This document shows, one piece after another, positions 3,710 to 46,320 of a DNA stretch of 64,000 nt. This stretch comes from Marsupella aquatica (lineage: Eukaryota; Plantae; Marchantiophyta), in assembly GCA_973895155.1 (NCBI GenBank), contig OZ316891.1, forward strand, positions 21,628,513 through 21,692,512. The letters are read 5' to 3'. Each line of letters begins with the position of its first letter. Position 1 is the stretch's first letter. The notes under the pieces were generated by a model. The model worked only from the letters and a program-made list of their open reading frames with translations, ran no database searches and had not been told where the DNA came from. The position numbers and the translations under genes were made by a program.

Positions 3710-3913
3710 CTATTGTATATTGAAACATATAGCTAAAGATGCTACTAACATCAGGCAGTACTATACCTGGAGTCATACCCTTAATTAGGCACTCCCCCCT
3801 TTACTCTTATTGTAGGAAAGTAAATTAGGCACCCCCTTCAGTCAATCCAAGAGTGTCAAGTATCCTTTATTATAATGGTTGAGTAGCCCAATGTCCATAT
3901 GTTGTACACAAAA

Positions 3914-4355
3914 TGTCAAGGTGAGAAAAGATGTGAAGGACAGAAAAACAATTCAAGGACAGAAACTATGTCAAGGTGAGAAAAGGTGTCAATGAGATAA
4001 AAAAAATGTCAAGGTGAGGAAAAATAGAAAAGGTGTCAAGGTGAGAAAAAATTGTCAAGATGAGAAAGGATGTTGAGGAGGGAAGAGATGATAAGGTGAG
4101 AAAACGATGTAAAGGTGATGAAACAATGTTGAGGTGAGGGAAAGATGTCAAGGGTGAGAACCCGGGGTGAGACAAATATGTCATGGTAAGATAAAGATGT
4201 CAAGGTGATAAAAGATATTAAGGAGAAACAAAAATATAAACGAGACGTTACAAAGCCGGGGTGAGAAAAGATATCAAGAAGCAAAAAAATGTCAAGGTGA
4301 GAAAAAAGGTAGAGGTGAGAAAAAGATGTTAAGGTTAAAAACAATGTCAAGGTGG
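3914..4355 (+). repeat. Degenerate ~19-20 bp minisatellite (consensus GATGTCAAGGTGAGAAAAA), ~20 units
   Basis: Repeated tgtcaaggtgagaaaa motif. Confidence 0.9.
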
Positions 4356-8187: not shown

Positions 8188-8595
8188 TTTGACATATTTT
8201 CTAATCATGAGATCTTTTCTCCTTGACATCTTTTCCTAACTTGAACATCATTTTCTTGCCTTGACATCTTTTAATCAGCCAGGCATCTTCTTCTCAGCCC
8301 AACATCTTTTTCTCCCCTCCATATCTTTTCTCCCCTCGATTTCTTTGGCACTCCTCAACATCATTTTCTCTCCTCAACATTTTTTCTCACCTCGACATAT
8401 TTTCTTTTTCTCATATTGCTATCTTTGTCTCACCTTGACATATTTTATCTCATCTCGCAATCTTCTTCTCACCTTGATATCTTTATCTCATCACAACATC
8501 TTTTCTCACCTTAACATCATTATTCACCTTGCTTTCTTTTTCTCACCTTGACATCTTTTTTCACTTCAAGATCTTTCCTTCACCTTGATATCTTT
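8188..8595 (-). repeat. Same ~20 bp minisatellite as 3914-4355, in inverted orientation
   Basis: tttctcaccttgacatc units are the reverse complement of the left array. Confidence 0.9.
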
Positions 8596-24656: not shown

Positions 24657-27600
24657 AGGGCACTTATACCACCACTATTAATCAATAAATCAAACTCTGT
24701 GTTGGGAGGAGCAAGCGAGGTACCAAAACAGGAGCCTTTTCCTTGCCAAAAACAAAACCTGCCCGTACATAGCAATATGTGCAGTTCACTGGGAGCTGTT
24801 TTTACGATGCATGAGTATTCTGTTGATCTTCTGAATCCCCTGTTTTTGGCCAGAATTGGTCGGGGGCCTTTATTTTTAGACGATATAGTAACTCAATGAT
24901 TATGAAGCGACATCTACTGTAAGTGAAGTATATGTTGAGAGCAAATCTTAATTCACATGGTTTTCTACTACGTGCGAAATTCATATTTTGTCCTTTCTTC
25001 TTACGTGGATTATTTTTAATTAAGGATTTCCGTTCTAAAATTATATCTTATAAATCTTCTGATTTCTTCATTATGTTCCTAATGATGTCCTTTGTTACCA
25101 ATTTCTTTTTTGCCCACCCTTCACCGCTATTAGTCTTATACTCCATTCAAGTGTTACACATCACTAAAATTAGTCAGTATAATTTGAGTGACCAAGTCCT
25201 TTGTGACAAGAATATTTGTTTTGTAGTTGTGTATCTTTCCTACCATGATTAGTAACTACTGTGTGGTTTTATTCTCATTTTCCTGAAAGCCAGAAACAGT
25301 CCCATGCAAAATTGATGAGCTATTCACCCAAGGATAAGGGAATTTTGGTTTTGCAAACTGGTTTGGTCGGTCATTGCAAAGTTCTATTGGATTCTTAATA
25401 AAGATACACGTTCTGAATTTGACTTTTTAGTATTGAATATGTGGTTTCATAGGCCCAACTTGCATGTTCCCAGCCCTTCACAATGCAGTTGCCCCAAATG
25501 TCTCCCAGGCATGCAAGCATATCACTGAACCAGATGTATCCAGTTGAACATCCTGATGTACCAAGCCTGACGGCACCATCCATGCATTTTTTAAGGCAAG
25601 GTCTAGGAAGCTTTTTCCCAAAGGTACTAAGAGTGCAAATTAAGGGCCGCATGCTTGAATGAGGGGTCTCACATGCGAGTTGGCCCTAAAAGTTAAACAA
25701 CCTGGCCACCATAAATAATAGTGAGAAACATAGTGAATACATTGTTCTTGATTGCATATGTAAAACAATATTAGCCAATCGCTATATAACAGGCAGGTAC
25801 ATACTAGTATCACTCCAAAATTAACCTCTGAAAGATTAGGCTGTATCCTGGAATGTCAAAATTGCATAGAGTCACCCAAATAGCATTAGTAAGACTAAGG
25901 GTTGTCTTGCATGTGCACACTAGAAGAAACCGGCCCATTTTGAGACCTGAAGATGTGTGACTTGGCCAAGACCTTCATGAAATAGCGACTCCAAGGTTGT
26001 TGGTGTCATGTTAGTCACACCTTCTTGACTGAGTTTTGGTGAAGTTTTGCCAAGTCATGTTTACAACTTTTAGGTAAGTTGCAACTATAACTTAGTTAAG
26101 GCAATTAGGGTGAAGTTATACAAGTGACTCTACATTAGAGTACAACTTATGAGACCACTACATTTGAACCCTTAAACCTTAAAGTATGGGATCCGCGACC
26201 ATATACATATGATTTTGGATACACCATATGTCATTCCACATCAATTTAATAATAGTTTAGTCATACCATTCTAAACCATAATTACTCCTGACCCCATTTA
26301 GACACAATGAAGCCTCAGCCCCGTTCAAACCGAGAGCAGGCCGGCTTTGTCAAACCTTACTATTAACCTAACTTAATGCTTTTTGTAGTCAATCTCTAAT
26401 TTTCTCCATCTTTACCACTTGTCCTACCCTCTATACCAGCCATAGAACATTGGATGTCCAACTACTATATTTTTGCATGCTATATATATATATGCATATG
26501 AAGAAGGCTTGATCTTAGATAGCATTAGTTTTCTTTTAGGCTCATCATTTGTGCTCTTAATTAATGAACATGCAACAAGGCTATTGTAAGGTTAATCCTA
26601 GCCCTGTCCGTTCATTTAATCTTTGCTCATATTGTGTTGTGTCAAATTTGCTTTAGGGTTTACAGCTCATGTCAACGCAAAGTGGTCGAGTGTCACTGGG
26701 TTCAGTTCTCTCACTAAGTGTTAAGGTATGCATTGTGCGTTGCCTTTGGATACGAGTTTAGGGTGCGCGGGTTTTTCAACAGGAAACACACCAGCAGAGT
26801 GCAAATGGGAGTTGAAGGTGCGCGGGAACTCGGAGGTTTTTGTCAAGGAAAAACTTGGATGTCCATTGTGCTTACCAACAACCATCGTTTAGGGCGAGGA
26901 GCTTTACGGACTTCACTCCCGCTTGTCGTGCTTGAGTGTACATCTGCTCTCTATACTTTTGGGAGCTTTGGACTAGAGCAGATGATCGGAAGCCTCGGAC
27001 GAGAGACACAGACTCCAATATCCAGCTCGTAGATCAATCCGTGATTGATTTTGTCAGGTGTGCGACCTTCAAGCTCTTCTCCATTGTGCGCTTCCAGTTG
27101 AATGCTGCAAGGTCTGAATACTATCGGGAGCTTGCATTTGGGCCAAGGTTTAGGTATTTTGTCATTGGAGGACTGAGCTGTGGGTTTAGGCCGACTTACT
27201 ATGAGCTTATGTTGTTGCAACTGTGACCAATAACTGAGGAGCTGCGACCAGGAGCTTATTTTGTTGCAGCACTGCCGTGGACAAGGGGTTGTGGAGGATC
27301 GGGGAGCTGCGACGTAGAACTGAGGAGCTGCGAAAAAGTGGGGAGTGATCTTGAAGGCCAACTATCTAGCGTGAGGTGGATCATAGTGGTTGCAATAGCG
27401 ATCGGGCCCTTTTTTGCATTGGCATTGCCAGTAAGACAATCTGTGGATGCGCGAAAGAGTCGCAAGGAGTTGTTCTTGTGGGCAGAGATTGGAGTTCACA
27501 TTTGGTAAGTCCACCTCAATAATGACATACATTGTAGGTGGAGGCAATGTTATGGCCTCTTGTTGTCTTTAAACTCATTCTCCACTCACAAGAGAATGAG

Positions 27601-29037
27601 GATTGATTGTGTCCTGAGAAGCTTAACAATTTATGTTGTTGACATCGTCCACATTGAGTGACAGTGAGCTCAAGTCAGTGAGTGACCGATCGAAGGGGAC
27701 ATTTGTGCTCTTCATTACATGCTCGGGCAAGAGTGATTGATGTACTAATCGCAAGCGCTCCCAGGTATCCATTTGTCGTTAAGACTTGAAGCTTCACCGG
27801 GAGCTGCGACCGTCAGTGGGGAGGAGTTGGAGGTTGTGTTGCGCTCGTACACAACCTCCAAGGTACAAGGCAGGAGTTGTGCAATTTAAGGTGAGAGTCA
27901 GTAGCTTTTGGGATTCACCATCTTTCATCGTTGTCATTGCTGCTCTCGTCTATCGCTACGGCCGATTGCTGCTCTGCGTTTTTGCCATGGGTTGCCAGTC
28001 TGCCAGATGTTGAGTGAGACAGAGGCTACAACCTGGGTGCGCGGAGGTCCTCACTAATCCCATGGTTTACAGTTTGCAAAATGTGACAGCCCCAGTGCAT
28101 AGTGAGGTATAGGGTGTGTGAGGTATAGGGTGTTCTTACTCGTGCTACAGTCGCTTTGACTTGCTGAGTTCCAGCAAATTGAGTTTTAGGTGCGGTCAAT
28201 GAGAGTTGAGCTGTTTGAGCTGCGGTCACTGAGAGTTTAGAGTTTGAGCTGCGGTCACTGAATGCTGGCATTGAGGTGCACGCCCTTCACATTGATCAGT
28301 GAAGGCTACGGCCGGGGTGATTATGACAGTGATTCCAATGCAAACCGTCCAGGTAAGATTTATGTGACATTGTGTACAATGAAAGTGGCCCTGCTTATTG
28401 ACTGCTTAATGTTTGTGTTGCAACTGGCAGCAGATGCATGGAGTGCAGCGAAGGGAGGCGCTATTCATGTGAGCTGACAGGGGAGCTGGACTTGTGAGCC
28501 GTGGTTGCAGCTACGTCTTGGAGCTACGACCTATGAGTTGCGGCTAGAGCTACGACTTGACCTGAAGGTGACGCATGAAGAGTAATTTTGCAATCCATGA
28601 ATGTTTGTACTCAATGTTATAGATGCATAGGGTGGGTGTTGCATTTTGTTACTATAAAATGTCCGTGATGTCGTGAGATGTTCTGTTCCTTGGATTGAGA
28701 CAATTCTTAGATCTCTACATCAGCGATTATTATATGTCATGTCTCACCTCAGATCATGAACGTGATTGGTTGGAGACTATATTAATTGGGGAGGAGCTCC
28801 AATCCGTTGTCATTGCTTCTCAGTGGAGTGTTGTTTTAGTAAGCTACAGGGGGCAACAGAGCGCAAGTTGCTGTTTGCAAGTTCACGCCTGCTACCTGCT
28901 ACCTACGACTTCCGCCTGAAAGGTATGACATTCACATATGCGCATTTCTGGTCTCCAGTTGATCAATGTACTTATTCCCGCTGCCTTGAAATGGACCTCA
29001 AATTTCCATGCTCCAATACGCTACTGTGATCGAAGCC

Positions 29038-29175
29038 TATCACGATGCAAAAATAGAGGAGAGGCAGAATCAGAGCCCGGACACCAACGTGTACAGATAT
29101 CACGAAGCTAAAATAGAGGAGAGGAAGAATCAGTGCTCGGCTCGGACACCAAAGTGTACAGACATCATGAAGCTA
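29038..29175. repeat. ~60-bp tandem repeat (~2.3 copies) in the CACTA leader
   Basis: tatcacga.gc.aaaatagaggagagg.agaatcag...cggacaccaa.gtgtacaga repeated. Confidence 0.85.
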
Positions 29176-31101
29176 ACTACAAGCTAGCAGATAGGTCAAA
29201 TGCTCCCAAATCGAGTCAGAGGAAAGTTACTAAGACTACCTTCACAACTCTCAAGTCTGGAAAGTAAAAATCAGCCTGAGACACGTAGCAAGAACTGTTG
29301 TCTGCTAGGAACTGTTGTCTGCTTTCTTGGGGATCGTCATGTGTATGTAATTGCATACACATTCTACCTGAGGGGAGTATGACTGTACACCTTAGGTAGA
29401 ACCAAGTACTATCTATCGCATGATATAATTCCTCTACAATTTTGTATTAATGTTGCCTAAGTGCTTTGTTGTATTGTTTTGGTTGTAATGACGTCACTTG
29501 CATTTCATAGTCAGTCTTAGTTGGTTGGCTTGGTACTCATTTGCTTTTCACTCCCTCTGGCTAGTGAATTTGTCTATTGTTGCTGAGTTTTTTGCGTAAG
29601 AACTACATGTTCTTCACTTTCTTGATCGTACTCTCTCCCCTATGGAAGACTATTGGCTTGGGCTGCCAGCCTTCTCTCTGTTTCAATTTGTTGTCCCTAT
29701 GGTCAAACACTACTTGGTTAGTGGTTTTGCTCTATTTTTGTCTGTTTTGCCTTCAAGTAGGACATGGATGAATTGAGCTTGGAGGCAACAAAATGGCAAG
29801 GAATCTGAATGGTTCCAGAAGTATGTGTGCTGCATTTTGATCTGGAGAACCAATTGTAGAGTTGACTCTTTTTGAATGTTGTAGTCTATTTTGCCTTGAA
29901 CTGGGCCATGGATGAATTGAGCTTGGAGGCAGTTTTTTTCATTCCCATCTTCCTGAAGCCTTATCTGCTTTCTGCCACCCCCTTGTGGTGGGGACTTTTC
30001 TTGAAAGATCCTTATTGTGAACAGAGTTTGTACTTTGATTATGAAGTTTGACTGAGTTTCTGTTTACTGAAAGAATGTGACTGTGTAAGAGTTCCGTTTG
30101 GCAGTGGATTGGTTGAAGCACTTCCTGCTAGTGTGTTGTCCACAGCTCTTCAACCAGCTTTTGTATTCCTTGTCTTTCACCACTTACGGTGACATCAATT
30201 CAGCTAAGACCATAGAAGGTTCCAAGGCATCTAACTTGTAAAATCGCATTCTGTTACATCAAGGACTAAGGTGTTGGGTGCCAAAGGAGACAGCACAGCA
30301 AACATGCTGAAAAGACTTCAGGACTGGGTTCAACAAGGTAGTGAAGGTGCTTAGAGCCATAGTAAGTATGCATTCTGTATCCTTTCTCTGTTGATGTGAG
30401 CTTGTGCATAGTAGGAGTTGTAGTTGGCAAGAGTTCCATAAGGCCAAATATGAATAGTTCCAGAAGTATGTGTATGAACCAAGTGTAGAGTTGACTCTTT
30501 CTAAATATTGTAGTCTCTTTTGCCTTCAACTGGGCCATCGAGTACTGCTAGTGTATTCACCCCAATGAGCAATGCTTCTCCATTCAATCAGGTGAACGTA
30601 CAGTTTGGTAGGGCCAATGCCATGTGATCATGTACTTGCTCTATAAAATTCTGAAGATATAAGCATTTTCTGTTAGACCAGGCAACTTGGGAGTTGCTAA
30701 GTGTCACCTGCATCTGAGGGGCTACACCGGGGGCATCAGTGGAGGTTCACTTGCACAACACGACAGCCAGTGAATTTTCTCTCTGCTGCAACCTGCAAGG
30801 TGAGACTTTTGGTCCTTCTGGATGAAAAAACAGGATTTTAATATGATTGATATACATGTCCGTCGAGAACATGGGTTTATCACCAAGCTCTTTGTCTTAG
30901 GAAACTCATAAACTCAGAATCAAATATGTACTATGCACGTTTCATGCTATGTGTATACTATGACCTGTAGTTGGAACCAAGACAGTGAGTGGGAACTGAT
31001 TAGTTTAGGTTGGTTGTTGTTGGCGAGGCAAGTCGACCTCCTGCTCGCCTTGCTCATCAAAGGACGTGAATAGAGGACGTCACAACAAAAGCAACACTTA
31101 A

Positions 31102-31551
31102 ATGGTGAGGACCCGCAACGCTGAACATGTGCGGCTTGCACGCAAGGCAGAGATGTTGCGCCTTGAGTATGTCAGACTTGGGATCCTTCCAGCCCAGTCT
31201 GCATGGTACTTTGAGTACCCTGTTGTTTCCAGGAACAACTACAGCCGGCCTCTACCTGCTTCAGTACCCTTCCCGACATCCTTGGTATTTGTGTCTCTTG
31301 TACATGACCCGCCACAAATTAGGTGCCAAGGGTGTGTGCACAGTTGCCAATATGACTGTCCTGCCTGTAGGGCTTCTGGCCCAGAATTGGATGACCGTTC
31401 TCTTGGATGCCGATTTTTGCACAGAGCACAATGTATCATCTGGAACCACTCGCCATCCTGCAGTGTGCCTGGTGATGTCACTTGTCCTGCCCTCCCAGAC
31501 CCCACCACTGGTGGATTTGGTGTCTACACATGTTTGGATCACATGCTCTAG
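31102..31551 (+). CDS. CACTA cargo ORF 1: 149-aa Cys/His-rich, putative zinc-binding protein of unknown family
   Basis: ATG start MVRTRN; CxxC-x3-C-x3-CxxC...C...H...C pattern; upstream intron-like segment (donor 30799, acceptor ~30970); co-oriented with the other element genes. Confidence 0.5.
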   Translation: MVRTRNAEHVRLARKAEMLRLEYVRLGILPAQSAWYFEYPVVSRNNYSRPLPASVPFPTSLVFVSLVHDPPQIRCQGCVHSCQYDCPACRASGPELDDRSLGCRFLHRAQCIIWNHSPSCSVPGDVTCPALPDPTTGGFGVYTCLDHML

Positions 31552-32165
31552 AGGACCACTTGTCACACCACATGCATAGACCAGATACCATTGACCTATA
31601 GCTTAACACTCTGCCTTCAACACAGAGGATATTTACTTAAAATTTTGATGTATGAGCAATTTTGGGTCCAGGGTTTAGGGTCAACAGTACATAACTTATC
31701 CTAGTATGCCTGCACTAAGCAAAATATCCTAATTTAAGAGGCTAGCAAACTCGCTTAAAAGTCTCTATTGAAAGACTACTTTAATATTGCTTTAACCTGG
31801 TGAACATTGCAACGTTGAATGAATTAATGGGCCATGTGATAATATGCAAAATGTGATTTATGCCTCACTTATTTGTCTCAGCCACTATCATAACCTATTT
31901 AGGATGTATAAATTTCAACCCTTATGACACTGCTTCATACCAATCCTCTTCAAAGAATGCCTGTTTTACATGTCACGACTATTGTATGTGATTCAAATGC
32001 ATGAAATGTTGTTGCAGATCTCCTTTGGTGAATCATAGCCACAATTAAAATTGAGGTGTTGGTGGAGAAATTGTATTAGGGGATCAGTTTTGTGTGTGGG
32101 CTCAACATACCCAAAGTATGTGTGCTCTGCATCCTTGTGTGGCCATTCCAATTCATTGCAGTAGC

Positions 32166-32309
32166 AAATGCCTTTGTACCTTAAATGCTAAATATATTTT
32201 ACTTTCTGTGCAGTCTGCTAAATTGTAGAGTCTATCTAAATGCCTTTGTACCTTAAATGCTAAATATATTTTACTTTCTGTGCAGTCTGCTAAATTGTAG
32301 AGTCTATCT
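32166..32309. repeat. Perfect 72-bp tandem duplication just upstream of the PHD ORF acceptor
   Basis: aaatgcctttgtacc...gagtctatct twice. Confidence 0.95.
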
Positions 32310-32320
32310 CATGCGCAGGC

Positions 32321-33001
32321 ATGGCACGGCCTAAAATTCAAGCCAAAAAGCGTGTGACAGAGGTGAGAAACACAGGTGTACTTGGGGCAGATGCTACTAA
32401 CTTCTCTGCAAGTCAAATTTTCCAAAAGGCAGCTCATTGTTGTGCCATTTGTGACGATGGTGGGGGCCTGGTCATTTGTGAGGGCCCTTGCATGAGGCAT
32501 TTCCACCTCAACCCGGAGTCTGACCTTGCTGCAGAAAACAACTGTCCAGGGGTGGGCCTCCCGTCAACACACCAGGGAGACTGGATGTGCACTGATTGTT
32601 TGGAGAAGCAGGCTAAGTGTGCACAGTGTGGGAAGTTGGGGTCCTATGAGGGCTCTGTTGATGCTGCAGCAAATGTTAGAAAATGTCCAGACCGTTTTTG
32701 TGTGAGATTTTTCTGTTTTGAGTGTTTGCCTGCTCATGCCACAGCTTGCCCACTTCATAGGTGCAAGGCATGTGGTGAGCATGATGATGACTACTGGACT
32801 GACATAGTCCACTGTGCTAGGTGTCCCACTATGTGGCACTATCATTGCCTGAAAGATCATCAAGCAGAGGGTTATGCTTGTGACAGAGAAATCTATGATC
32901 ACTCTGCACATGGTGTTGATTGATGGATATTTTATTGTCATCGCCATGCCATTGATCCTACCTCGCGCACTCCTATGAGAGATCACATATCTTGGCTGTG
33001 A
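32321..33001 (+). pseudogene. CACTA cargo ORF 2: EDM2/NSD-type PHD-finger cluster (~226 codons) with one in-frame TGA at 32921
   Basis: CAICDDGGGLVICEGPCMRHFH...CTDC...CAQCGKLGS...CPLHRCKAC...CARCPTMWHYHCL; reading through the stop gives WIFYCHRHAIDPTSRTPMRDHI, matching EDM2 'LIYCxxHEIDxxLxTPxRDHV' (recalled, not aligned). Confidence 0.85.
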
Positions 33002-33593
33002 AGCTGAACATTGTACATGCACAGTGCACCTGATGTGGATGTACTATTTTTTGAGATTGCAGAGATTCCAATTTTGAAAAGGAGTTGGGTAGGCGAGTTT
33101 ATATAGGCAGCACTTATCTTGTGCTCTGGCGTCAGTGGCTGGGTACATGCCTATACAAACTTATCCTTACAAGCCTTCTTGGAAGTATTTAGGCTGAGTG
33201 GTCATTTTCATAAACACTTTCATCAGACTGCTAAATTAAAACAGGACTTCTAAGTTGTAAGCATATAAATTATCAGGCATGCAATTAATCAAATTGCCCT
33301 ATAAGTTTGTCATTGAATGTATCCTCCTTTACAACAAAATATGTATGTGCCATGACCAGTTGGTTGCACTTCATTTCACCACGGATATGGATTTTGTAGT
33401 ATATATTCAAACAATGTCCTGCATCCGTGCAGGTGCCTAGTACGTATTGTTCACATATCCCTTGTACCTATCAAAATCGGACCTGAGTACCAGTGGGCCA
33501 GATCAACTCAAAAAGCAGGAATTTTGTTGTCCTTATATTGTCAGGTGAACCCATTCTTCCAAAATTCACTGTCATCACGTAGGGTGTGTGTAC

Positions 33594-34463
33594 ATGGAGC
33601 CTGGGAAACGTAGAAAGTGTGACCACCCAGCAGTGTTTACAGGGGTCAGAGCGATTTTGGTCCATGGCCAGCATGGGTTGACCAAAGTGCATTGGCCAAC
33701 TGTACAGAAACGATTCTCTGAGCTCCATGGCACTGTAGTTCAGGACATCACTCCAGAGACTACACATGTTGTTGCAGGGACATGGCTATCAGTGATAAAG
33801 AAGTGGTCATGGTACATGAATTCTGCAATTACTAAGCAAGGCCTAAAAGTAGTTGAGGCCTCTTGGATCACAGATTCCATAGCACATAAGATTGTACAGG
33901 ATACTGAGCAATATGAGTTGTGGGAGGATGAAGAAGCTACTGCATCAGCTTGGGCTGAACAAGAAGTCTGGGAAGCAAAGGCACGGCTTGCTGATCTCCA
34001 ATATGGACCTGTACTCAACAAAGGACAGAGCTCTACAAGGCTGAAGAGTATGTTGGCTGAGGAGACGAAGCAACCAACCCCCATTCTGAAAGGGCTGAGC
34101 ATGGTATTTGTGGAGGCGGGAATTGGAGAGGTTAAGTGCAAAGTGTACAAGTCCACAGTGCTTGACCTAGGTGGGACAGTGGAGGAGAATATAACAGAGG
34201 ACACCACTCATGTCATTACTAAGTCATATCCCAAAGCCTGCCGCAAGTTTGGGAAGGGAGACATTCGCTTTTATGTCATGTCCCATAATGTGTTTGTGGT
34301 TTCATATGCTTGGCTTGTGGAATCAGTAGCAGCTGGGAAGCGTCAAAACCCAATGGACTATGATCTTTTTGACGCCTGGCCACGGAAGGGTCAGGATCCT
34401 TACAGAGAGGACTATGAGACAACAAGTGAGGAATGGGTCATTAGCGATTCTGAATCAGAGTGA
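33594..34463 (+). CDS. CACTA cargo ORF 3: intact 289-aa tandem-BRCT protein, BRCTs resembling that of plant DNA polymerase lambda
   Basis: Two units VF/LxG...GGTV/HGTV...TTHVV/I...SWITDS/AWLVES...YEL/YDL; basic NLS-like KRRK after the ATG at 33594; acidic C-terminal tail. Confidence 0.85.
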   Translation: MEPGKRRKCDHPAVFTGVRAILVHGQHGLTKVHWPTVQKRFSELHGTVVQDITPETTHVVAGTWLSVIKKWSWYMNSAITKQGLKVVEASWITDSIAHKIVQDTEQYELWEDEEATASAWAEQEVWEAKARLADLQYGPVLNKGQSSTRLKSMLAEETKQPTPILKGLSMVFVEAGIGEVKCKVYKSTVLDLGGTVEENITEDTTHVITKSYPKACRKFGKGDIRFYVMSHNVFVVSYAWLVESVAAGKRQNPMDYDLFDAWPRKGQDPYREDYETTSEEWVISDSESE

Positions 34464-34896
34464 GGAGTAGTAGCATCAGTTTGGACACAAGTTTTTTTGT
34501 ATAAATCAGATCATTGAAATAAATGTGATCTTTGAACTAATGTACCTTGTTATGGTTGGTGGCAGTTGGGCTTATTTTACTGTTGGCGGATTGTTGTTTC
34601 CTACTGCCTGGGGGTGTCACTGTAAACGTACATGCAGAGGCGGTACATTTGAGGACAGCGGAGGAGGTGGTGACACCCTCCAACATTTAGGAATTTTGTG
34701 TCATTCACTTGACAATAGGTACACTACTTGCGAACCTGTTTTTTTCTTTTGGGGTGGTTTAGGGTTTGTGAGAATTTAGTACACGTTATGTTAACTCTTT
34801 TGACAGATACAGTCAGGGATATATGGAACACAAATACCACCATTAGGCATCCTTGTTCACTGCTGTCCATGACTGCAGAGCTCCCAGCCTGTTACA

Positions 34897-37464
34897 ATGC
34901 ACCCTGGTCACCACCCTCCCCAGACCCAGCCCAGGGCACAGGCACTGCCTTTGCATCATCCCACAAGGATATCACGCCATGATAATAAGCTTTGGCAGCG
35001 TGAAAGGTTACGAACCAGACTTTCAGGAGCCAGTAGGATGAGATGGCCTTGTGCAATCTGCCAAGGATCCCGTACCAGGGGTCTGAATGAGGTTTGGCGG
35101 CATATCGCGGTTCATGGAAGAGATCCACGACATCGAGTTTGGAATGATCCTGCAGAGGAAGATTCTTCCAATGCTCAGGCAGCACCACGTGACGAAGGAA
35201 TTCATGTAGAAGAGATGGTGAGAGACATCTTCCAAGACTTGGATGCATTTCATGATGGGCTAGACAACGAAGAGGATACGGCTGTAGATGCAAGTGTGCC
35301 CCCTGTCGAAGAGCCTCTTGATGAGTTTGAGATAGGGCAGGAAACCCCTGGGCATGATGGGATGTTTGGCTCTCCCGTGCAAATACAGGAAGGTAGGAAG
35401 TCTTTGTACCCCGGTAGCAAATGTTCTAAACTGGGATTTGTCATCATGTTCCTGAACATTTGCGGCAACCACAATGTCCCCAACGTTTTGGTTTCTGAGT
35501 TGTTGGCATTCTTGCGAACAACTGTGCTACCAGATGGTAATATTTTGCCCAAGAACATGTACGAGGCAAAATGATGCATATCTAATCTTGGATTGAACTA
35601 TGATTCGATCCATGCCTGTCCTGATGGGCATGTTCTTTTCAGAAAGGAGTATAAAGAATCGTTGACATGCCCTAAGTGTGGGAAGCACAGGTATCGGAAC
35701 TCAGGAAAGTCTATGGTTCCCGCCAAGGTACTTCGTCATTTTCCACTCATTCCCAGACTTCAGCGGATGTTCAGAAGCCGTGCGACTTGGGCAACTGACA
35801 AGAAAAGTGATGATGGGCTACAACGACATGCTGCAGATTCAAGGCAATGGAAACTCATAGATGAGATGTATCCCGAATTTGCTGCTGAGCCGAGGAATGT
35901 CAGACTTGGGCTGTCATTGGATGGGGTAAACCCATTTGGAGACAAGAACAACAAATTTTCGTGCTGGCCTGTAACTATTTTGAATTATAACCTTCCTCCT
36001 TGGATGACTACAAAGCGATTTTTTGTTCTGATGGTCCTATTGATACCAGGGCCAGACAGTGCTGTATCTGCCAACATAGATGTGTTTCTGGCTCCCCTAG
36101 TGGAGGAATTGAGAAAGCTTTGGGAGGAAGGAGTTCTCACATATGATGTCCTACAGAGGCTTGGGAGGTTAAACCCATTCATCCTTAGAGCCATTGTCAT
36201 TCTGACTATAGCTGACTACCCAGCCCATGGGATGATATCAGGCCAAACAACAAAAGGATATTGTGCTTGTACTATCTGTGGGCGCAATGTCACCAGTGAG
36301 TACTCCAGAGCCCTGCAGAAAGTGATATACATGGGCCATCGTCATTTTCTGAAGGCAAATCACCCTTACAGAGAAAGACAGGCACTGATTGCACACTTTG
36401 GCAATGAGATTGAGCAACGTGGACCCCCGGCACGAGTGACCAAAGAGGAGATCAGGCAGTGGGGAGCATTGAGGGATGACTATATCAAACGAGGGGGCAG
36501 GGAAGATGGAGTGAGTGATCCAATAAAGCGATATGGTGTAAAAAGACTGAGCATATTGGACTTGGAGCTCAAGTACTGGAGGGTAAGCCTCTTGGAGTTG
36601 ATGCTAATTGGGATACATGTTTTGGTTCAGAGCATGTGCATTCATTTCGAAGAGAGAGACTAAACTTGAGGCATTTCCTGACGCTTTTGCATTGCAACGA
36701 TGCAGGAGTTTGAGCCAAGCAAACATAACATTGATGTTATGCACATTGAAAAGAATATTTGTGAGAGTCTACTCAGATTCTTGTGTGGAGAGAAAGACAC
36801 TGGTTCAGTGAGATTGGATCTTGAACAGAGGGGAATGAAACCCCATCTTTGGTTGAGGCCACATGCCCACAGAGCTGATGTGCTCTTGAAGTACCAAGCG
36901 CCCTATGTTCTGACAGACACAGAGTGGGAACTATTTGTGCAGAGGTTGAGTTCTTTGAAGGTTCCTTCAAACTATGGCAGTGCTTTCAAGAAGCATATCA
37001 TGACTAGAAAGCTTGGTAGTATGAAAAGCCATGACTACCATATGTTGATGCAACAGGTGTTGCCTTTATGCCTGAGGGGCCTATTGCAGAAGCCTGTTCG
37101 TACTGTGATCATGCGACTCAGTGATGTGTTTCGTCGTATTTGTGTGAAGGTTTGGGATGAAACACACTTCCCACAACTGACAGAAGATGTCGCTCAGGTG
37201 CTGTGTGACCTGGAGATTTATTTTCCTCCCGCATTTTTTGATGTCATGACCCACCTACTTGTCCATGTTGTGGAAGAGCTACACCAATTTGGGCCTGTGA
37301 GTGCTCGTTGGTTGTACCCTTTGGAACGGTACATGAAGCTACTCAAAGGTCACATGAGAACATATTACAAACCTGAAGCAAGCATGGCTAAAGGTTACAT
37401 CAAGGATGAGACTCTGGGATTTCTGACCGAATACATAGCACAATATGAGCATGTGAAGACCAGG
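34897..37464 (+). pseudogene. TnpD: TnpD/Tnp2-type CACTA transposase: exons ~34897-36582 and 36706-~37464, premature stop at 35572, C-terminus deleted
   Basis: Transposase-associated motif WPCAIC...VWRHIAVHG; YEAK*CISNLGLNYDSIHACPDG; RNVRLGLSLDGVNPF, YNLPPW, ADYPA; intron 36583-36705; HNIDVMHIEKN, KSHDYH, FPPAFFDVMTHLLVH, RWLYPLERYM; homology ends abruptly after QYEHVKTR. Confidence 0.95.
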
Positions 37465-38153
37465 GCGTCCTGCCAGTTCTGTTTTGCCTTCAAAGCCTGT
37501 GCATGCACCATACCAGCAGGGGGGGCTGACCTCTGATCAAGGTTGGCGAGGTGGTAGTAGTGGTAGATCCCAGGCTGGTGCCCAATACTATGGCAGGGGG
37601 CAAGCTCTAGGTTATGCCCGTGGTAGAGGCAGAGCAGGTCCAAACCCACAATCTCGTGGGTATGGACGTCCACCTCAACCATGGGGATGTGAGTATATAT
37701 CTATATGCCAGTTCTTTGTGAAGGCATGGCACTCCTGAATTTCAGACTGCATATCAATTTTTGACATTGTTTGGGATGTATTGGATTCAGACAACATGAA
37801 ATTCTGTCCACCTGCCATTGCATGCAGATTCTGCCCAACCTGATTGGGCAAATGCTAGTAATGATCAGTTCCAATGTCCACAAGGACAGACATGGGTTGA
37901 ACCAGGTTGGGAGGATGGTGGTGGGTCGTGGAATGAACAAGGTTGGGAAGGTGGTGAAGGTAATTGGCAGGGATATCAAAATTCAGTACCTACAAACGCT
38001 GGAAGAGGGGCAGGTAATGTCTGATCTTGTCAGCAATGGAAGAACTCATTATATGTGGAGTCCATTCACGTGGGGGGGACTCTGCACATGTATAATGATA
38101 GAAAATGTATGTGTGCAGGTTGGACAGTTGAACCATCGACTCAAGTATTCACT

Positions 38154-39388
38154 CACTAGAAGAATCCGAGGTGAACTGAGACCGCAATATATGACTCATT
38201 TTGGCTCATGTGACTTCATTGTGACTCAACGTGACTTGACCCACGCTGTGACCCTTGGAGTTGCAAAAGTTGAGACCAAAAAATGGAAGTCACTATTGAT
38301 ACTGGGCTTTGCAACTTGCTTGATACCCATTTGTGACTGATCTGTGACTTTATTGTGGAGTCTAGCCTTGTTTCGACGTGACTGCAATATGACTTCAGCG
38401 AGTCACATCGTAAGTCACATACATGACTTACCCGCATTCAACAACGACTAGCGTGTGACTATTTAGTGTCACAGTACATAGTGTAGCATAAATTACATAG
38501 CTAGGCCATTCATTCTTACCAAACGTTTAGCTGTCAGTGCAGTGCCGGTCCTTCCTGTCAGATTAGGGTTCTGAACACTCAACCTGGCCTCGGTCATCTG
38601 TGAACTCTTCTTTTTTGAAGCATCTGTTACAAAATAAGCTACTAACCTTGCCCACACTTTATCATCACAACTGGCTGGTGGAGGCATATCTGGCTTCTCC
38701 CCACCTTCCTTCCAAGCCTTATGCATTCTCCACCTCTCTTGCTTGATGATTTTACCTGCTGTACTCTCTAGGCAACCTATGTCCACGCCATCATCACTGC
38801 CCACATAATTCCATTTGGCAGCAACATTTTCACATACAGTCTTCCAATCTTTTGGATGCTGTTTTTTAAAATTAATAACACTCACATCTAACCAACGCAA
38901 TACTTCAGCTTTCAAATCAGCATGCCATCGGTTCTTGCAAGGACACTCAGCATCCACCCATTGTCTCTCATTCAACTTTACGTTCCCTTTCTTTGTCACC
39001 TCCCCTCGTGCACTGCTCTCGGTAGTATTGGGCGTTGTATTGGCCACCCCTTCATTCACCCTACCTGGGGTTCTGAAGCCACCTGGGAAAATACAATGCC
39101 ATTCATGCTTGAGAACTACATATAGCAGAATGGATGACGGCAACATTCAATGCTTCACTTCAAGAAAAATTCTTCAAACATACATACCTGTAGCTCTGCC
39201 TGTAGATGCCTGTGCAGGGACTGCACTCTGAAATTGTTGCGACCCTGGACCACCTGTCTAGCCTAGTACAGGGGCCGGATGATGTCACTTTCTAGGTATG
39301 TGTGTGCAAACATATGTACTGAAAACTAAGTACAAACTGTAGGAAAACAACTGAACATTCACCGACATACCTGTCCCCCTTCCGTGCT
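38154..39388 (-). mobile_element. Inverted copy of the CACTA right end (44457-44777) fused to a copy of 41522-42437, lacking the ~2.0 kb between them
   Basis: Begins CACTAGAAGAAT preceded by ACT; near-identical reverse complement of the two segments; junction at 38473-38474 with 2-bp CT microhomology; contains the duplicate 217-aa ORF 38493-39146. Confidence 0.95.
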
Positions 39389-39410
39389 GCATCTGCATAG
39401 GGGCATTAGT

Positions 39411-41521
39411 CACTAGAAGAAACCCACCCTTTCTGAGACCACAAAGAATGTGACTTGTCCGAGACCTTCATGAAACAGCGACTCCAAGGTTATTGGTGTC
39501 ATGTTAGTCACACCTTCTTGACTGAGTTTTGGTGAAGTTTTGAGGAGTCATGTTTACAACTTTTAGGGAAGTTGTAACTATAACTCAGTTAAGGCAATTA
39601 GGTTGAAGTCATACAAGCGACTCTACATTAGAGTACAACTTATGAGAGCACAACATTTGAGCCCTTCAACCTTAAAGTATGAGATCTAACCCAATACATA
39701 TGATTTTGGATACACCATATGTCATTCCACATAGATTTAATTCTAGTTTGGTCATACCATTTTAAACCATGCCATTACTGAGTATTCCATCATTATTCCT
39801 ACCCCCATCTAGACACCATGAAGCGCGCCCCAGCCCCATTCAACTGCAAAAAGGATTTGTCAAAGCTTGCTAACCTAACTTAATGCTTTTTGTAGTCAAT
39901 CTCTAATTTTTCTATCGACGTCTTCTGGTCGTGCCAAAGGCGTGCTTAATTATCACCCAATTTCAGCCTCACATATGTAGGTTGGGTTTACTTATTGCCA
40001 TGCCCCAGAAACCACCATGTTTCCCCGGCCCCCTTCATATATGACAACCAATGCATGCTTCATGTTCAATATAAGTCCAACTTAAATGTCCAACTTAAAT
40101 ATATATGATCAGCTCTTCACTACCCCAACCCTAAAAAAGTGTTCTTCATAATGGTAATGTGGGGTCATACCTGAATATTTGGCCACATTTTCACCAAAGG
40201 GGGTGGTTCAAAGTTGTGACTAACCACTCACCCCACATATAACTAAATTGCGTAAGTCCTTTGGTTTCAAAGGAAAAAACAAATTAGGCAAATCATAGAC
40301 TTTTGTGTCTCTTTTGTGAACTAATGTCTCCACTTCAATGGGAAGACAAGTGAGTGGTCTTCACGTTCGGCATTTCTCTCCCGCACAGGGTTTTGGGAAG
40401 GGTCTCCAAGGGAGTTGGTTTGCCTCAAGGGTTTGCAAGCCAAACGGAAGCTTTGCGTGCCATCGTCATTGAGCTGGTGGGAGGTCATCGAGGTCTTTGG
40501 AAGAGAGAGGTCGAATGCCTAGCGCTACCGGGTGAGGAAGTAGAGTATGGCAATGCTGCAACTTTAGGGATTTTATGACATCCTACTAACGACTGTTATT
40601 GGACCCGGCTTCCAGTTTTGGCGTTGCACTTTTTGAAGTTGAGGTTGGACCTTATTGCGGCCCGATGTGTATACACTCCTAGCCTTGCCGTCCTGAGCTG
40701 CGAAAGGGTTCTCGATTCTGTCCTTCTGCTTTCGTTGATCGTTGGGCAATGTGAGTAGTAGGAGGCGAGAAGAGCGAGTGTGTGTTGCATTGAGAAAAGG
40801 GAATGTGAGTAGTAGGCATCAAGAGTGATTGTGTGTTGCATCGACAATAGGCACTACGGGAAGCACTGTGAAGAGTTTGCGAGAATTTAATTCAACATTC
40901 AATAGACACTCATTCCTTGAAGCTAGGAGAGTGAATTCGATATTCAGTTGCAACTTGGGATCGAGAACCAGGAGCTTGTCACTTGGCTTGCATTTGGACT
41001 ATTCTTGCTGCGGATTGCTACGCAGCACGGCTTGGTGCTGCATCGCCCCAGGTAAAGCTGCAATCCCTATCTTTGCGGTCCTACGTCGCTGCAAGTTTAG
41101 TTGTCTCCCCACGGTCTTCTGAGCTTGGTGTCCATAGCTTACGGTGAGCATTGGAAGATCAACCTAGCGAGCATTGGAAGAGCGTTCGATCAAGTGTGGG
41201 TACAACATGCTGATACCTTTGAGCTGGGAGAGCTCAGAGAGTTGAGCTGCAAAGCTTGTAGTTGCGGACTCTATTTCAGTTTAGGCGAAAATGTTTTTGG
41301 TCTTTAGAGCTCATTGTAATGCAGATAAAAACTTTCAGTGTTTTTGGAGGTAAGTGAGTCTATAGAGGCGCTCAACAAACGCAAGGACCTGTTCTTGGGA
41401 GCAGAGAGCTGCAATACTGATCAACTGAAATTGGATGAGAGTGAGTCCAGGCCCTGCGGAGCTGAACTTAGCTGAATGACAAAGATTGAGCGTGCGCGGC
41501 TGAACTGAAGTGTGGCTCAAT
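39411..41521 (+). mobile_element. Second, diverged CACTA left end with its own non-coding leader
   Basis: CACTAGAAGAAA preceded by AGT (reverse complement of ACT); 39411-~39910 aligns by eye with 25918-~26405 with many substitutions, then diverges. Confidence 0.9.
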
Positions 41522-44419
41522 AGCACGGAAGGGGGACAGGTATGTCGGTGAATGTTCAGTTGTTTTCCTACAGTTTGTACTTAGTTTTCAGTACATATGT
41601 TTGCACACACATACCTAGAAAGTGACATCATCCGGCCCCTGTACTAGGCTGGACAGGTGGTCCAGGGTCGCAACAATTTCAGAGTGCAGTCCCTGCACAG
41701 GCATCTACAGGCAAAGCTACAGGTATGTATGTTTGAAGAATTTTTCTTGAAGTGAAGCATTGAATGTTGCCGTCATCCATTCTGCTATATGTAGTTCTCA
41801 AGCATGAATGGCATTGTATTTTCCCAGGTGGCTTCAGAACCCCAGGTAGGGTGAATGAAGGGGTGGCCAATACAACGCCCAATACTACCGAGAGCAGTGC
41901 ACGAGGGGAGGTGACAAAGAAAGGGAACGTAAAGTTGAATGAGAGACAATGGGTGGATGCTGAGTGTCCTTGCAAGAACCGATGGCATGCTGATTTGAAA
42001 GCTAAAGTATTGCGTTGGTTAGATGTGAGTGTTATTAATTTTAAAAAACAGCATCCAAAAGATTGGAAGACTGTATGTGAAAATGTTGCTGCCAAATGGA
42101 ATTATGTGGGCAGTGATGATGGCGTGGACATAGGTTGCCTAGAGAGTACAGCAGGTAAAATCATCAAGCAAGAGAGGTGGAGAATGCATAAGGCTTGGAA
42201 GGAAGGTGGGGAGAAGCCAGATATGCCTCCACCAGCCAGTTGTGATGATAAAGTGTGGGCAAGGTTAGTAGCTTATTTTGTAACAGATGCTTCAAAAAAG
42301 AAGAGTTCACAGATGACCGAGGCCAGGTTGAGTGTTCAGAATCCTAATCTGACAGGAAGGACCGGCACTGCACCGACAGCTAAACGTTTGGTAAGAATGA
42401 ATGGCCTAGCTATGTAATTTATGCTACACTATGTACTATTTTTTAGTGTAAACCCATACATGTAAACTTTGTTTTTTAGTGTACGTTCCCTGAATATTGA
42501 TCGATAACTTGTGTTTGCCATGCATGTGCAGAAAGCCCAATTGGGGCAAAGCCCTTCAAAAGAAGAGTTGAGGGCTGAAATTGTGAACACCCGGGCTCAA
42601 GAGGGTGCATCTGAATCCTCCAAGCATGTAAGTTATATGAGTTCTGATTGGTAATTGAATGACCTGCGTTGAATTTCAGGTGTACACTGTATATAACATT
42701 GATTGTGCATATATTGCCCAACATTTCATATGGAGTGATTGAACCTATACCCCTGTGTCATGTAGGGAGGTGGATCTTCACTTACAGAGATAAGTGGTCG
42801 TTTGAAGGCTATCGAAACATGTCTTCCAGAGATCAATGAACGTTTGAATTCATTGACTGACTTGTTCCATGTGAACTTCAAGACATTAATGGAAGCTTTT
42901 GTGTCGGTGAGAGATAAAATTGATTCCAATTCTGCAGGAGTTCCACCATCACCACTTGAGGTGGCAAAGTCGATGCACTCTTCTGGCATGCCAACGACAT
43001 GTAGGCTTGAAGGTAAGGCCTTTACAACTGTGTGGGATATGATTATTAAATGTATAGTTTGAATTGACATTGTTTGTTGAATGTGTTATTTTCAGTAACA
43101 TATATTGTGGTTGTTGTGTCCATAGAGAATAAGGCAGGTGCTACAGAGAAGAAGTATGAGAACCTGGCAAATACTCGCTGTAATTTAGAGGCAACAAAGT
43201 TGCAGTCTGTACAAGCAACTTGTTTGACAGAGGGCAGTCAACCATGTTTGGATGAGGATGACATTGGCAAGGGAGTGGATGATATCAATGTTGGGGCAAA
43301 TGAGGATATCAGCAAGCATGACAATGATACCATTGAGCCAGATTCATGCTATGTAGATCTTGACTCCATTGCAGAGATAAATGATTTGCAGAATGTATCA
43401 TTCTCAATGACAGGTGTGCCTCTTGTTGAGATAAATCCAACCAAAGAGTTAGTTGGTATGACACTCCCAGGTGATGAACCTGCTACTGTGACAGTCCTAA
43501 CAGAGGAACCTACTGAGCCTAGCTTCACTACTGTGAAGAGAGGAAGCATGCGCACACGAAGCAAGTCTGCTGGTGGGAGCAGAGCCACGTCAAAGGTTTC
43601 ATACAAACCTCCAAGAACAGTGCTGGTAGAAAGATCTAAGGTGGAAGTGGGGAAAGCACCTAATGCTGAGGGACAAAGTGGCTTGTTAGCTGTTGATGAG
43701 AGTGGAACACGAGTAGGATTTGCCAGAGTGCAGGTTGGTTCCACAACGTTCCATGGCAAGAGGATTCCCCCAGGTTATTCAGTAGTGTTAGTCACATTAC
43801 TAGTGAAACCTAAAGCTGTCCTTCCCATTTCAAACACAAATGATGATCCTCCTCAAAAGACACTTGGAGATGCTGCAGGTTCTTTGGTATTATGGCCAAG
43901 CAAGTTCATAGAGGATCCATAACAATGTCATGCCATTATTTGTTTGTAGTGTGAGTCATGTTATGTAGATTTTAGATGTCAAGAAGCAGTACAAGAATCA
44001 TGTCCTCTTGGAGATTCATAGTATCATGCATGTGCTTTCAGTTATCTCATCCTACAGTCATCAATTATGAGTTCCTGTTTTGTCTGAATTACATTGATCA
44101 CATTGTAAACTATTCCATTGGAATTCAAATGATCTTCATTTTTTAGCAAGATTGTGATTGTGTTTAATTCTTATGAATGTTTTATGTAGGATCTGCTTAT
44201 ATGATGCTTTGTTTCATGTGGATGTCATTCATGCTATGTTCATTTCTTGTATTCAATGTGTTATATTTCTAAAGTTAGAACATCAGGTTTCTATGTATTG
44301 TAATGTCAAGTGCTCTCTCTCCTTATGAACTGTCCCTCTGTGTTCATTAGTCATGGTTATAACTTGCATGTGAACCTTATTAGTTATAAACATGATTATA
44401 TAGAGTCCCAAATGGTTCT

Positions 44420-44777
44420 GTTGTGTGACGCGAGCCAGGGTCTCCATTGGTCTCTCCTGTGACACTAAATAGTCACACGCTAGTCATTGTTGAATGCGGG
44501 TAAGTCATGTATGTGACTTACGATGTGACTCGCTGAAGTTATATTGCAGTCACGTCGAAACAAGGCTAGACTCCACAATAAAGTCACAGATCAGTCACAA
44601 ATGGGTATCAAGCAAGTTGCAAAGCCCAGTATCAATAGTGACTTCCATTTTTTGGTCTCAACTTTTGCAACTCCAAGGGTCACAGCGTGGGTCAAGTCAC
44701 GTTGAGTCACAATGAAGTCACATGAGCCAAAATGAGTCACATATTGCGGTCTCAGTTCACCTCGAATTCTTCTAGTG
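44420..44777. repeat. CACTA right subterminal array of GTGACT/AGTCAC motifs (putative TnpA binding sites)
   Basis: >15 gtgac/gtcac motifs in both orientations next to the TIR. Confidence 0.8.
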
Positions 44778-46320
44778 GCAAGAGTCCTGAAAAGTGTGAC
44801 CCTTAGCAGCCCATAGATGTAGGGGAAAAGTGTGGGACCCAGGAACTAAACACAATCAAAAACAGCTTACGTGTAGGTGAAGTGCTTATTCAGTCGGATC
44901 TACTGCCATTTTTTGTATTCAAAGCTTTAAGTTTGGGACCTCAAGGGCCGGCCCTTGCCCTTGCATATCCTCCAAAGACGCAATCAGGACTGCCGGCTTG
45001 TCGCTTTGTTTGGGATGCCATGGGTTCATTTGAGGGCCGAAAATCAAAGGACTTTGCACATGCAAGACGGCCCTAATAGTGGTGGACATTGCAGGCTGGA
45101 CTGTAGGAAACCCCCGAGGAAACCTAGACTCCCTCTTTTGTGCTTTTGTGTAGGTCTTTGAAGCTCACTTAGCAACAGTGACACCTTGAAGCTGATATCA
45201 ATGTCAGTGTGCATTTACACCGTTTAATCGTAGTGCTTAGGTTTCAACTGTGCTTAGTTCTCTCAAGTCATGGAGCACACCTAGCCTGTTGTGTCAATCC
45301 ATAATTTGCACAATTAAGTACAGAACTAAGGTTACCCATGTTTAGTTACCATTTTCTAGAGGTCCGTGCTATTTCCATAATCTACTGCCCCAAAAGTCAT
45401 GATTGTTATCTTTATTCTGCACTAAATTATGTACTATACTGACGGTCTAAGCTTGGGTCCCAGAATGCTCAGGAAAACTTTTTGCTATAGCTGGTCAGTT
45501 TTTCTTTGTTCAATCCACTCATGTTCTCACAACCATTTCTCCCCCATCAGGCCCGAGCTCCTTCTGTGTGGGGGGGGGGAGGTCACTTCCATGGAAGTGG
45601 CATATCATGTGTGATGAAGGATAGGGCCATTTAAATGGATTTTGCGGAAAATATATTAAGTCTTCAAAGGAAATATAGGTCGGGTTCTTTAATAATTGCA
45701 ATAATTATGCATAGTTACATGTCATCAAATGAGTGGTGTTGTACAACTTTATATGAAGTGACTCAGGGGGTCATAAATGACCCTTGAAACCTTTGCATGT
45801 GATATAGGTACTCCATATAGTGAACCCCTGAGCTGCCGAGCAACCTTCCGCCCCTGGATATGATTGATATACCATATTGTATGTTTTACAGCCTCTTTCA
45901 ATGCCTACAGTAGAACTTACATTCTTTTTGGCAAGAGCAAAGAGTGCAGTACTTTGACACTTGAAGCGATTCTATTAGGATGTCTCAAAACCTGGCCATA
46001 CCAGGACAATGTCTTGGATCCCATGCATAAAATTAAGTTGTGGGAGCCAAACTTAATTTGGCTCCTGCGAGGAAAGCTTGTGGGTCCAACATTTAAGCAA
46101 TGACCTTAATAACTTTCCAATAACTTGACTAACAAATTCAGAAATCCAAAGATCTGGAAAATCTGTGATCAAAGGCACATGGGCTTGGGGCCTAATGGGG
46201 TAATGCTTGCTGCATTTGGGGGGCTGGTAATTCCAAGAATGAAAAAAAGTGGATATAGAGGCTATATGAGAGTGAGGTGAGGCTTTCACCCCGCCTTACC
46301 TGGCGGGTCAATGTTGCCTC

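Follow-up and report, generated by a model that had tools for sequence, protein, structure and literature searches.

The 64,000-nucleotide stretch of contig OZ316891.1 analyzed here (hereafter the window; positions are counted from its first letter) contains a transposon of the CACTA, or En/Spm, superfamily that carries three accessory genes (cargo) in addition to its transposase gene TnpD and its second gene TnpA. This accessory set is real, selected, part of a known superfamily and apparently undescribed. The copy in the window is dead, and the bulk of the family is without its lesions. Our overall reading is that the window holds one dead member of a CACTA family with many copies, and that the family's three conserved accessory genes, which are intronless and precede TnpD and TnpA, serve the transposon; in our judgment it has about an even chance of being correct. 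The cargo open reading frames (ORFs) and the transposon genes are the following.

31102..31551, plus strand: cargo ORF 1, a 149-aa Cys/His-rich protein of no known family
32321..33002, plus strand: cargo ORF 2, an NSD/EDM2-type PHD cluster of 226 codons, with a TGA at 32921-32923
33594..34463, plus strand: cargo ORF 3, an open frame of 289 aa with two polymerase-lambda-like BRCT domains joined by a flexible linker
35038..37465, plus strand: TnpD transposase, with an intron at about 36583-36705 (read from the sequence), a TGA at 35572 and the 3' end deleted after 37465
37466..38153, plus strand: TnpA 5' exons (37466-37688, 37828-38013, 38119-38153), Gly/Trp-rich, the start lost in the deletion
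41522..43922, plus strand: TnpA 3' exons (41522-41539, 41648-41722, 41828-42390, 42532-42627, 42766-43012, 43126-43922)

The CACTA element with its GCA target duplication is real. It has CACTAGAAGAA terminal inverted repeats (TIRs) at both ends, 3-bp target-site duplications (TSDs; GCA for the outer element, ACT for a nested one), a TnpD with Pfam matches to Transposase_21 (E 1e-70) and DUF4218 (E 1e-27), a TnpA-like second gene with a match to Transposase_24 (E 1.6e-4, below the cut-off), and subterminal repeats.

Distribution of and selection on the cargo genes

Nine of the 11 listed sequencing runs contain the stretch or part of it, five with at least half of its words, under three organism labels; the best-covered run may be the source sample. 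The word depth of the cargo bins is 45,000-158,000 in run X4 and 8,000-33,000 in run X2, the same order as that of the TnpD bins and one to two orders above that of the 5' non-coding region, with the limit that word depth is not copy number and cannot rank genes. Since cargo and TnpD depths agree in order in both runs, a cargo private to one copy is excluded. Stand-alone homologs of the same length were found among Logan proteins for the BRCT ORF (2 of 571 candidates; 59 and 54% identity), the PHD ORF (3 of 42; 81, 74 and 52%) and the Cys-rich ORF (2 of 25; 56 and 55%), in a search that covered lengths of 0.55-1.75x the query. The question raised by the first-pass annotation, whether the cargo occurs only in the window copy, is thus answered in the negative by depths in the thousands and by these homologs.

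A 1381-nt contig of run X6 (depth 186) extends from the BRCT ORF to a point at most 75 nt from the start codon of TnpD and differs from the window at 45 positions in 922 nt (~95% identity) and at 26 in ~335 nt (~92%). High-depth, diverged contigs of runs X7 and X8 match chiefly the coding parts of PHD, BRCT and TnpD; possible carry-over, namely 151-nt pieces in X8 and X9 (depth 2-20) and near-identical pieces of low depth in X7, was not counted as presence. A metagenome scan with the close BRCT alignment gave 172 pattern matches, none of them confirmed, and 1 of 18 was confirmed with the diverged alignment. No RNA matching the stretch was found among the listed runs, and none of the joints listed for contigs of seven runs had GT..AG ends. 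The top summed depth in X4 falls on 30852-31495 (Cys-rich ORF) and 42444-43731 (TnpA 3' half), peaks that may reflect non-autonomous derivatives retaining those parts.

The window copy itself is damaged. In-frame TGA codons interrupt the PHD ORF at 32921-32923 and TnpD at 35572; in four of four runs nearly all depth has a sense codon at these places (32921 T>C, 35572 T>A), and the PHD homolog P0004 has Arg at the position of the stop. Contigs of X2 run on in frame at 37465 into sequence missing from the window copy, so that the end of TnpD and the start of TnpA have been deleted at 37465/37466, and TnpA is split by a nested element. With the TnpD stop, the deletion and the nested insertion, the copy lacks the intact TnpD and TnpA of an active autonomous element. 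The five coding units of the first-pass annotation are accordingly all present and co-oriented, but not intact. At 35046, in the N-terminal zinc-finger motif of TnpD, the window copy has Trp where other copies have Cys, a further private lesion.

Conservation of the cargo was compared with 1000 neutral simulations per homolog pair. The PHD homologs retain 22/22, 22/22 and 20/22 Cys residues, against neutral means of 17.5, 16.0 and 10.8 (P<=0.003), and the BRCT frame remained open in 0 of 1000 simulations at the observed divergence. The majority indels listed (12 of 23) form seven clusters, every one outside the ORFs (P about 0.005), and the sole indel listed inside a cargo ORF in a four-run comparison is an in-frame 3-nt insertion. 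Judging from these sequence comparisons, the PHD and BRCT cargo is very probably under selection, and the Cys-rich cargo probably so. All three cargo ORFs start with an ATG of their own and are free of introns, in line with the compact ORFs that had been proposed. They are not near-identical, intron-bearing host fragments, the second BRCT domain (BRCT2) being 25-34% identical to its polymerase-lambda-like matches.

Domain identity of the encoded proteins

Pfam places two BRCT domains in 33594-34463 (E 1.6e-12), and the two halves match one another (E 2e-9). A BRCT profile searched against representatives of 50%-identity clusters reached 58 of them, 12 at E<=1e-10, and the hits include proteins of 264-313 aa with two such domains. 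Apart from family members, BRCT2 best matches the above polymerase-lambda-like N-termini, and two of these belong to proteins in which Pfam recognizes polymerase X domains. When 100 single domains were placed in a tree, the two halves fell into one group of 52 rows that also holds Pfam-confirmed polymerase X proteins and is separate from TopBP1/BRCA1-like repeats. The tree was a quick one, of 107 columns and without bootstrap, and the group's Shimodaira-Hasegawa-like approximate likelihood ratio (SH-aLRT) support of 94 does not reach the level that the tool marks with a star. The best single stretch in the PDB for a profile of six diverged members is the BRCT domain of human Pol lambda (2jw5; E 5e-6). 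The AlphaFold model has two domains joined by a disordered linker at 133-160 (predicted template modeling score, pTM, 0.43). Foldseek superposes it on tandem BRCTs with root-mean-square deviations of 14-23 A and on the whole model does not discriminate BRCT types; a 10-sequence alignment may fail to show packing of the two repeats.

The pair looks like an internally duplicated polymerase-lambda-type domain rather than a BRCA1-type phospho-reader. It shares with the N-terminal BRCT of DNA polymerase lambda the best single-domain match, the tree group and a basic N-terminal peptide before the domain, and differs from it in being duplicated, without a catalytic domain and inside a transposon. The break-repair role envisaged for a tandem BRCT in the first-pass annotation is sharpened to a polymerase-lambda-type domain, and the repair role itself is one that we infer. 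The Pol lambda BRCT is described as sitting on the Ku bridge through Arg57 and Leu60, with two copies per complex (PMC13649775); by inferred numbering, K and V stand at the matching positions in the window, and K and M in homolog P0002. The BRCT domain of Arabidopsis Pol lambda binds Lig4 and XRCC4, and Pol lambda has been implicated in excision-site repair (PMC4444747, citing other work).

The second cargo ORF has three NSD-like PHD matches in series in Pfam (PF23011, PF22908 and PF23004; E 3e-5 to 3e-3, below the curated cut-offs); its homolog P0006 passes the PF23011 cut-off. PDB matches of the PHD profile are NSD2, NSD3 and AIRE, and all four PHD sequences, those of the window and the homologs, end at the same motif. 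By motif likeness, the cluster may be EDM2-derived. It resembles EDM2 and NSD-type clusters in the three Pfam matches and the NSD2 and NSD3 structures, and differs in being stand-alone, intronless and without a methyltransferase-like region. The PHD repeat of EDM2 is reported to bind modified histones and to affect transposon silencing (PMC3632883). An AG-ending acceptor-like site lies at most 12 nt upstream of the PHD ATG and of the BRCT ATG, which would fit splicing of both ORFs to a common leader. A perfect 72-nt tandem duplication (32166-32309) stands directly ahead of the PHD ATG.

The Cys-rich ORF has no Pfam match, and its model (predicted local distance difference test score, pLDDT, 55) had no Foldseek match at E<=0.001, the best being VIA at Z 4.2. 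No cargo ORF has a Pfam match to a VANC or Ulp1 family. Upstream of the Cys-rich ORF lies a motif array:

27239..28554, plus strand: GAGCT[AG]CG array, eight copies all on the plus strand in the CpG-richer non-coding 5' region, a candidate protein-binding array

GAGCT[AG]CG is the top 8-, 9- and 10-mer of the 5' region (P 0.003-0.007 against the best motif of 300 shuffles); at the 7-mer level it falls short of significance once multiple testing is allowed for (P 0.09, 0.87). Among 10 control blocks outside the element, 6 reach at least seven copies of some 8-mer, mostly of low-complexity or tandem type. In the 5' region of the nested member, which can hardly be aligned, the 7-mer occurs three times, against 0.27 expected (P=0.006). 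The observed/expected CpG ratio is 0.56-0.75 in the 5' regions and mostly 0.1-0.5 elsewhere in the element. VANC targets are short motifs in fast-diverging non-coding regions (PMC10398659). The array resembles such target regions and could also be a promoter element.

Modeled without the nested element, TnpA is open over 752 codons with seven GT-AG introns of 105-141 nt. Its modeled N-terminal 185 aa have 6 GW/WG motifs, two of them formed across modeled exon junctions, with 10 Trp and 36 Gly, and the other 567 aa have none. This composition fits an Argonaute hook, and actual Argonaute binding appears improbable. AGTCAC/GTGACT occurs at about 40 per kb in the right end of the element and at 1.5 outside; by analogy with Arabidopsis Spm (10.64898/2026.08.24.746577), these repeats would be the expected TnpA sites. 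The same source and another study describe TnpA-like domains as restricted to flowering plants, so the TnpA-like gene at 41822-43922 would extend that range if the host is a non-flowering plant.

Possible functions and known systems

How could such cargo serve the transposon? The source of both BRCT domains would be the N-terminal BRCT of DNA polymerase lambda, doubled by internal duplication. With no polymerase attached, the double domain would sit in the polymerase-X site of one Ku ring or of both where excision or integration breaks the DNA, a decoy or tether that would steer or shield end joining. The PHD cluster would bind histone H3 tails at family copies, as a reader or a competitor of EDM2-type host readers, and so help to keep the copies expressed. 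TnpA would bind the AGTCAC terminal repeats, and the Cys-rich protein, in the most speculative step, could be a VANC-like factor for the GAGCT[AG]CG array. We rate the engagement of Ku and non-homologous end joining by the cargo as somewhat better than an even prospect, and a counter-silencing role for at least one cargo protein as tentative and short of even. A complete host-manipulation kit, consisting of a bivalent polymerase-lambda-BRCT Ku decoy, an EDM2-derived reader, a GAGCT[AG]CG zinc factor and an Argonaute-hook TnpA, is doubtful.

If the Ku proposal is true, the transposon would carry, as a selected gene, a catalysis-free docking domain of Pol lambda that targets non-homologous end joining itself, and one could test whether cut-and-paste elements direct how their own breaks are repaired. 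The known plant transposon accessory factors TnpA, VANC and KAONASHI act on DNA methylation, from which a repair docking domain would differ. The stand-alone NSD/EDM2-type reader and the Cys-rich protein with its candidate array would be two more reagents for the host-transposon arms race. Annotation pipelines would take such cargo for ordinary host genes.

Several observations weigh against these proposals or against our overall reading. As to the family, linkage on a single contig of another copy extends from BRCT to TnpD only and not over the full gene order; the homologs come from called ORFs, which introduces ascertainment bias; and the sole homolog locus examined (L001, 1404 nt) holds a BRCT copy that is diverged and interrupted by an in-frame stop, while its 470 nt of flank contain no transposase. 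As to the BRCT domains, apart from the limited support of the tree given above, Pol lambda is not listed at E<=1 for the close-family profile, REV1 BRCT outscores Pol lambda for the diverged-member profile when two partial stretches are summed, and the positions matching Arg57/Leu60 (inferred numbering) vary in distant members. Ahead of its first Cys, the first finger of the PHD cluster (PHD1) carries His in place of the acidic residue of AIRE, so that any histone preference assigned to it would be tentative. The GW/WG count of 6 in TnpA is not above composition (shuffle mean 3.9, P=0.17): the GW/WG-rich region noted in the first-pass annotation is present, but not enriched, and the small-RNA-effector arm proposed for the cargo finds no support beyond GW composition. 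As to selection, the Cys-rich ORF retains 7 of 10 Cys residues (P about 0.2) with a frame survival of P 0.04-0.06. Among the variants listed, 5 of 13 cargo substitutions are synonymous, against 26% expected (P=0.24), and 6 of 9 in TnpD, many of the listed substitutions being private changes of the dead window copy. The idea of a selected accessory set is hence upheld for PHD and BRCT by the protein-level tests, but weakly for the Cys-rich ORF and not by the variant sample.

Alternatively, the cargo may have been selected for the mechanics of transposition and not for counter-silencing, with the PHD cluster steering the transpososome to a chromatin type and the BRCT pair helping to finish integration. 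The same evidence of selection applies, and mutants of Pol lambda are reported to show impaired T-DNA integration (PMC4444747). In Arabidopsis Spm, TnpA is enough by itself to demethylate the termini (10.64898/2026.08.24.746577), so that extra anti-silencing genes would not be needed. By contrast, the one-strand, CpG-containing array in both 5' regions and the fast divergence of the 5' non-coding parts parallel VANC targets as described in PMC10398659, and we regard this alternative as unlikely. It is also conceivable that the cargo persists via the host, either as partly domesticated genes or as sequence so host-like that silencing it comes at a cost. A silencing conflict can arise from captured host sequence (PMC13317346), but the nearest host-type BRCT is too dissimilar at 25-34% identity for common small RNAs, and the cargo decays like transposon genes, with a stop in the window copy and another in L001, which makes this explanation quite improbable. 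Passive Pack-CACTA capture, in which neutral host fragments are amplified with a successful family, would agree with the capture of host sequence by CACTA elements (PMC13317346), the variant sample and the weak Cys-rich tests, but is highly improbable given that the ORFs lack introns and keep their starts and ends at 52-60% identity, that zinc ligands are retained, frames are open and indels lie outside the ORFs, and that the BRCT family extends over many clusters below 50% identity. In L001, the BRCT relative occupies 2-940 and is interrupted by an in-frame TAG, so such BRCT genes decay elsewhere too; its cluster mate P0072 is ~29% identical to the window ORF.

Compared to known systems, the element shares with En/Spm the CACTA TIRs, the 3-bp TSD, the head-to-tail order of TnpD and TnpA and a dense subterminal array, and it adds three stand-alone ORFs upstream of TnpD and a Gly/Trp-rich N-terminal region of TnpA. 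Arabidopsis En/Spm elements have one or two genes according to PMC13547354, in which neither PHD nor BRCT occurs, and En/Spm TnpA has an NDX-B-like domain (PMC13547354, PMC13317346). That transposons encode anti-silencing proteins, as the first-pass annotation states, agrees with TnpA of Arabidopsis Spm1 KAKUSEI, a sequence-specific demethylating activator (10.64898/2026.08.24.746577), and with VANC in VANDAL elements (PMC10398659). VANC is derived from MAIN-like proteins (PMC13547354), and KAONASHI is described as an Ulp1 in KIU (PMC13317346). The window element resembles these systems in having host-derived modules as separate transposon genes and short motifs in fast-diverging non-coding regions. 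It differs from VANDAL Mutators in superfamily and modules, and anti-silencing is here a hypothesis only. In size and ORF count it resembles En/Spm elements of the red alga Chondrus crispus, which are 16-20 kb with 4-5 ORFs (PMC6431247), and Pack-CACTA elements likewise combine CACTA ends with extra coding sequence; unlike it, however, Pack elements are non-autonomous with neutral fragments. The cargo combination proposed as novel is apparently undescribed: no account of transposon-borne PHD/BRCT CACTA cargo was found in the literature searched, a scope without Repbase reports, most subscription papers and supplements.

Anatomy of the window copy

The termini and the rearranged interior comprise the following features.

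25915..25917, plus strand: left TSD of the outer element, GCA (self-comparison and flank check)
25918..26403, plus strand: left terminus of the outer element, CACTAGAAGAA TIR and subterminal region
38151..38153, plus strand: TSD of the nested element, ACT, with partner AGT at 39408-39410 and an empty-site loose end at 39410 in run X4
38154..39410, minus strand: inverted segment, with the right terminus (38154-38474), inverted TnpA exons (38473-39388) and a 19-nt continuation of the interrupted TnpA exon (39389-39407)
39411..41521, plus strand: nested second family member, left terminus and 5' non-coding region
44457..44777, plus strand: right terminus, TIR and dense AGTCAC/GTGACT subterminal repeats
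44778..44780, plus strand: right TSD of the outer element, GCA

Self-comparison finds four CACTAGAAGAA termini in the window, an outer pair at 25918 (plus) and 44777 (minus) with GCA on either flank, and inner ones at 38154 and 39411. The span 25918..44777, annotated at first as one CACTA transposon with TSD-validated termini, is therefore correct in its outer ends, but it contains a nested member. The span as a single element with five intact units is ruled out by the four termini, the stops, the deletion and the nested insertion. The inner left end at 39411 is 82.5% identical to the outer left end over 510 nt, and the segments 38154-38474 and 38473-39388 match 44457-44777 (98.8%) and 41522-42437 (99.5%), respectively, as reverse complements. 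By coordinates, the 18.9-kb span resolves into an element of 15,511 nt and an insert of 3,346 nt.

In the simplest reading, a second member would have inserted in reverse into a TnpA exon (TSD ACT), followed by an inversion via the common 916 nt and by deletions; the inversion may instead have arisen by reversed-ends transposition, or may be a misassembly. In contigs of X4 the loose end at 39410 is the sequence preceding 38151, which represents the empty insertion site. The junction at 41521/41522 may be private too, since a contig of X2 takes a different course after 41525.

The rearrangement has left a 916-nt inverted repeat of TnpA exons (99.5%) together with the inverted right end (38154-39388 and 41522-44777), and read-through would thus give a long hairpin RNA. 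By analogy, the copy in the window could silence its own family via such RNA; the Mu killer and Ac killer alleles are reportedly comparable hairpin-type silencing loci.

The 5' non-coding part (25918-29500 and 39411-41521) is a subfamily-specific mosaic. Contigs from other copies pass from one 5' region into the other, with joints at 26305-39827, 27846-40500 and 40340-26741. Rfam matches were nil. Scans for Pfam families in 26400-31100 (six frames) and 39900-41530 (three plus-strand frames) were empty, so that no fourth cargo gene was found in these two non-coding stretches.

Outside the element, a 449-codon open frame on the minus strand (18711-20060), about 5.9 kb away and without a Pfam match, is probably a host gene. 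Further upstream, 3910-4354 and 8212-8595 are low-complexity purine/pyrimidine-rich repeats in inverted orientation, ~67-72% alike.

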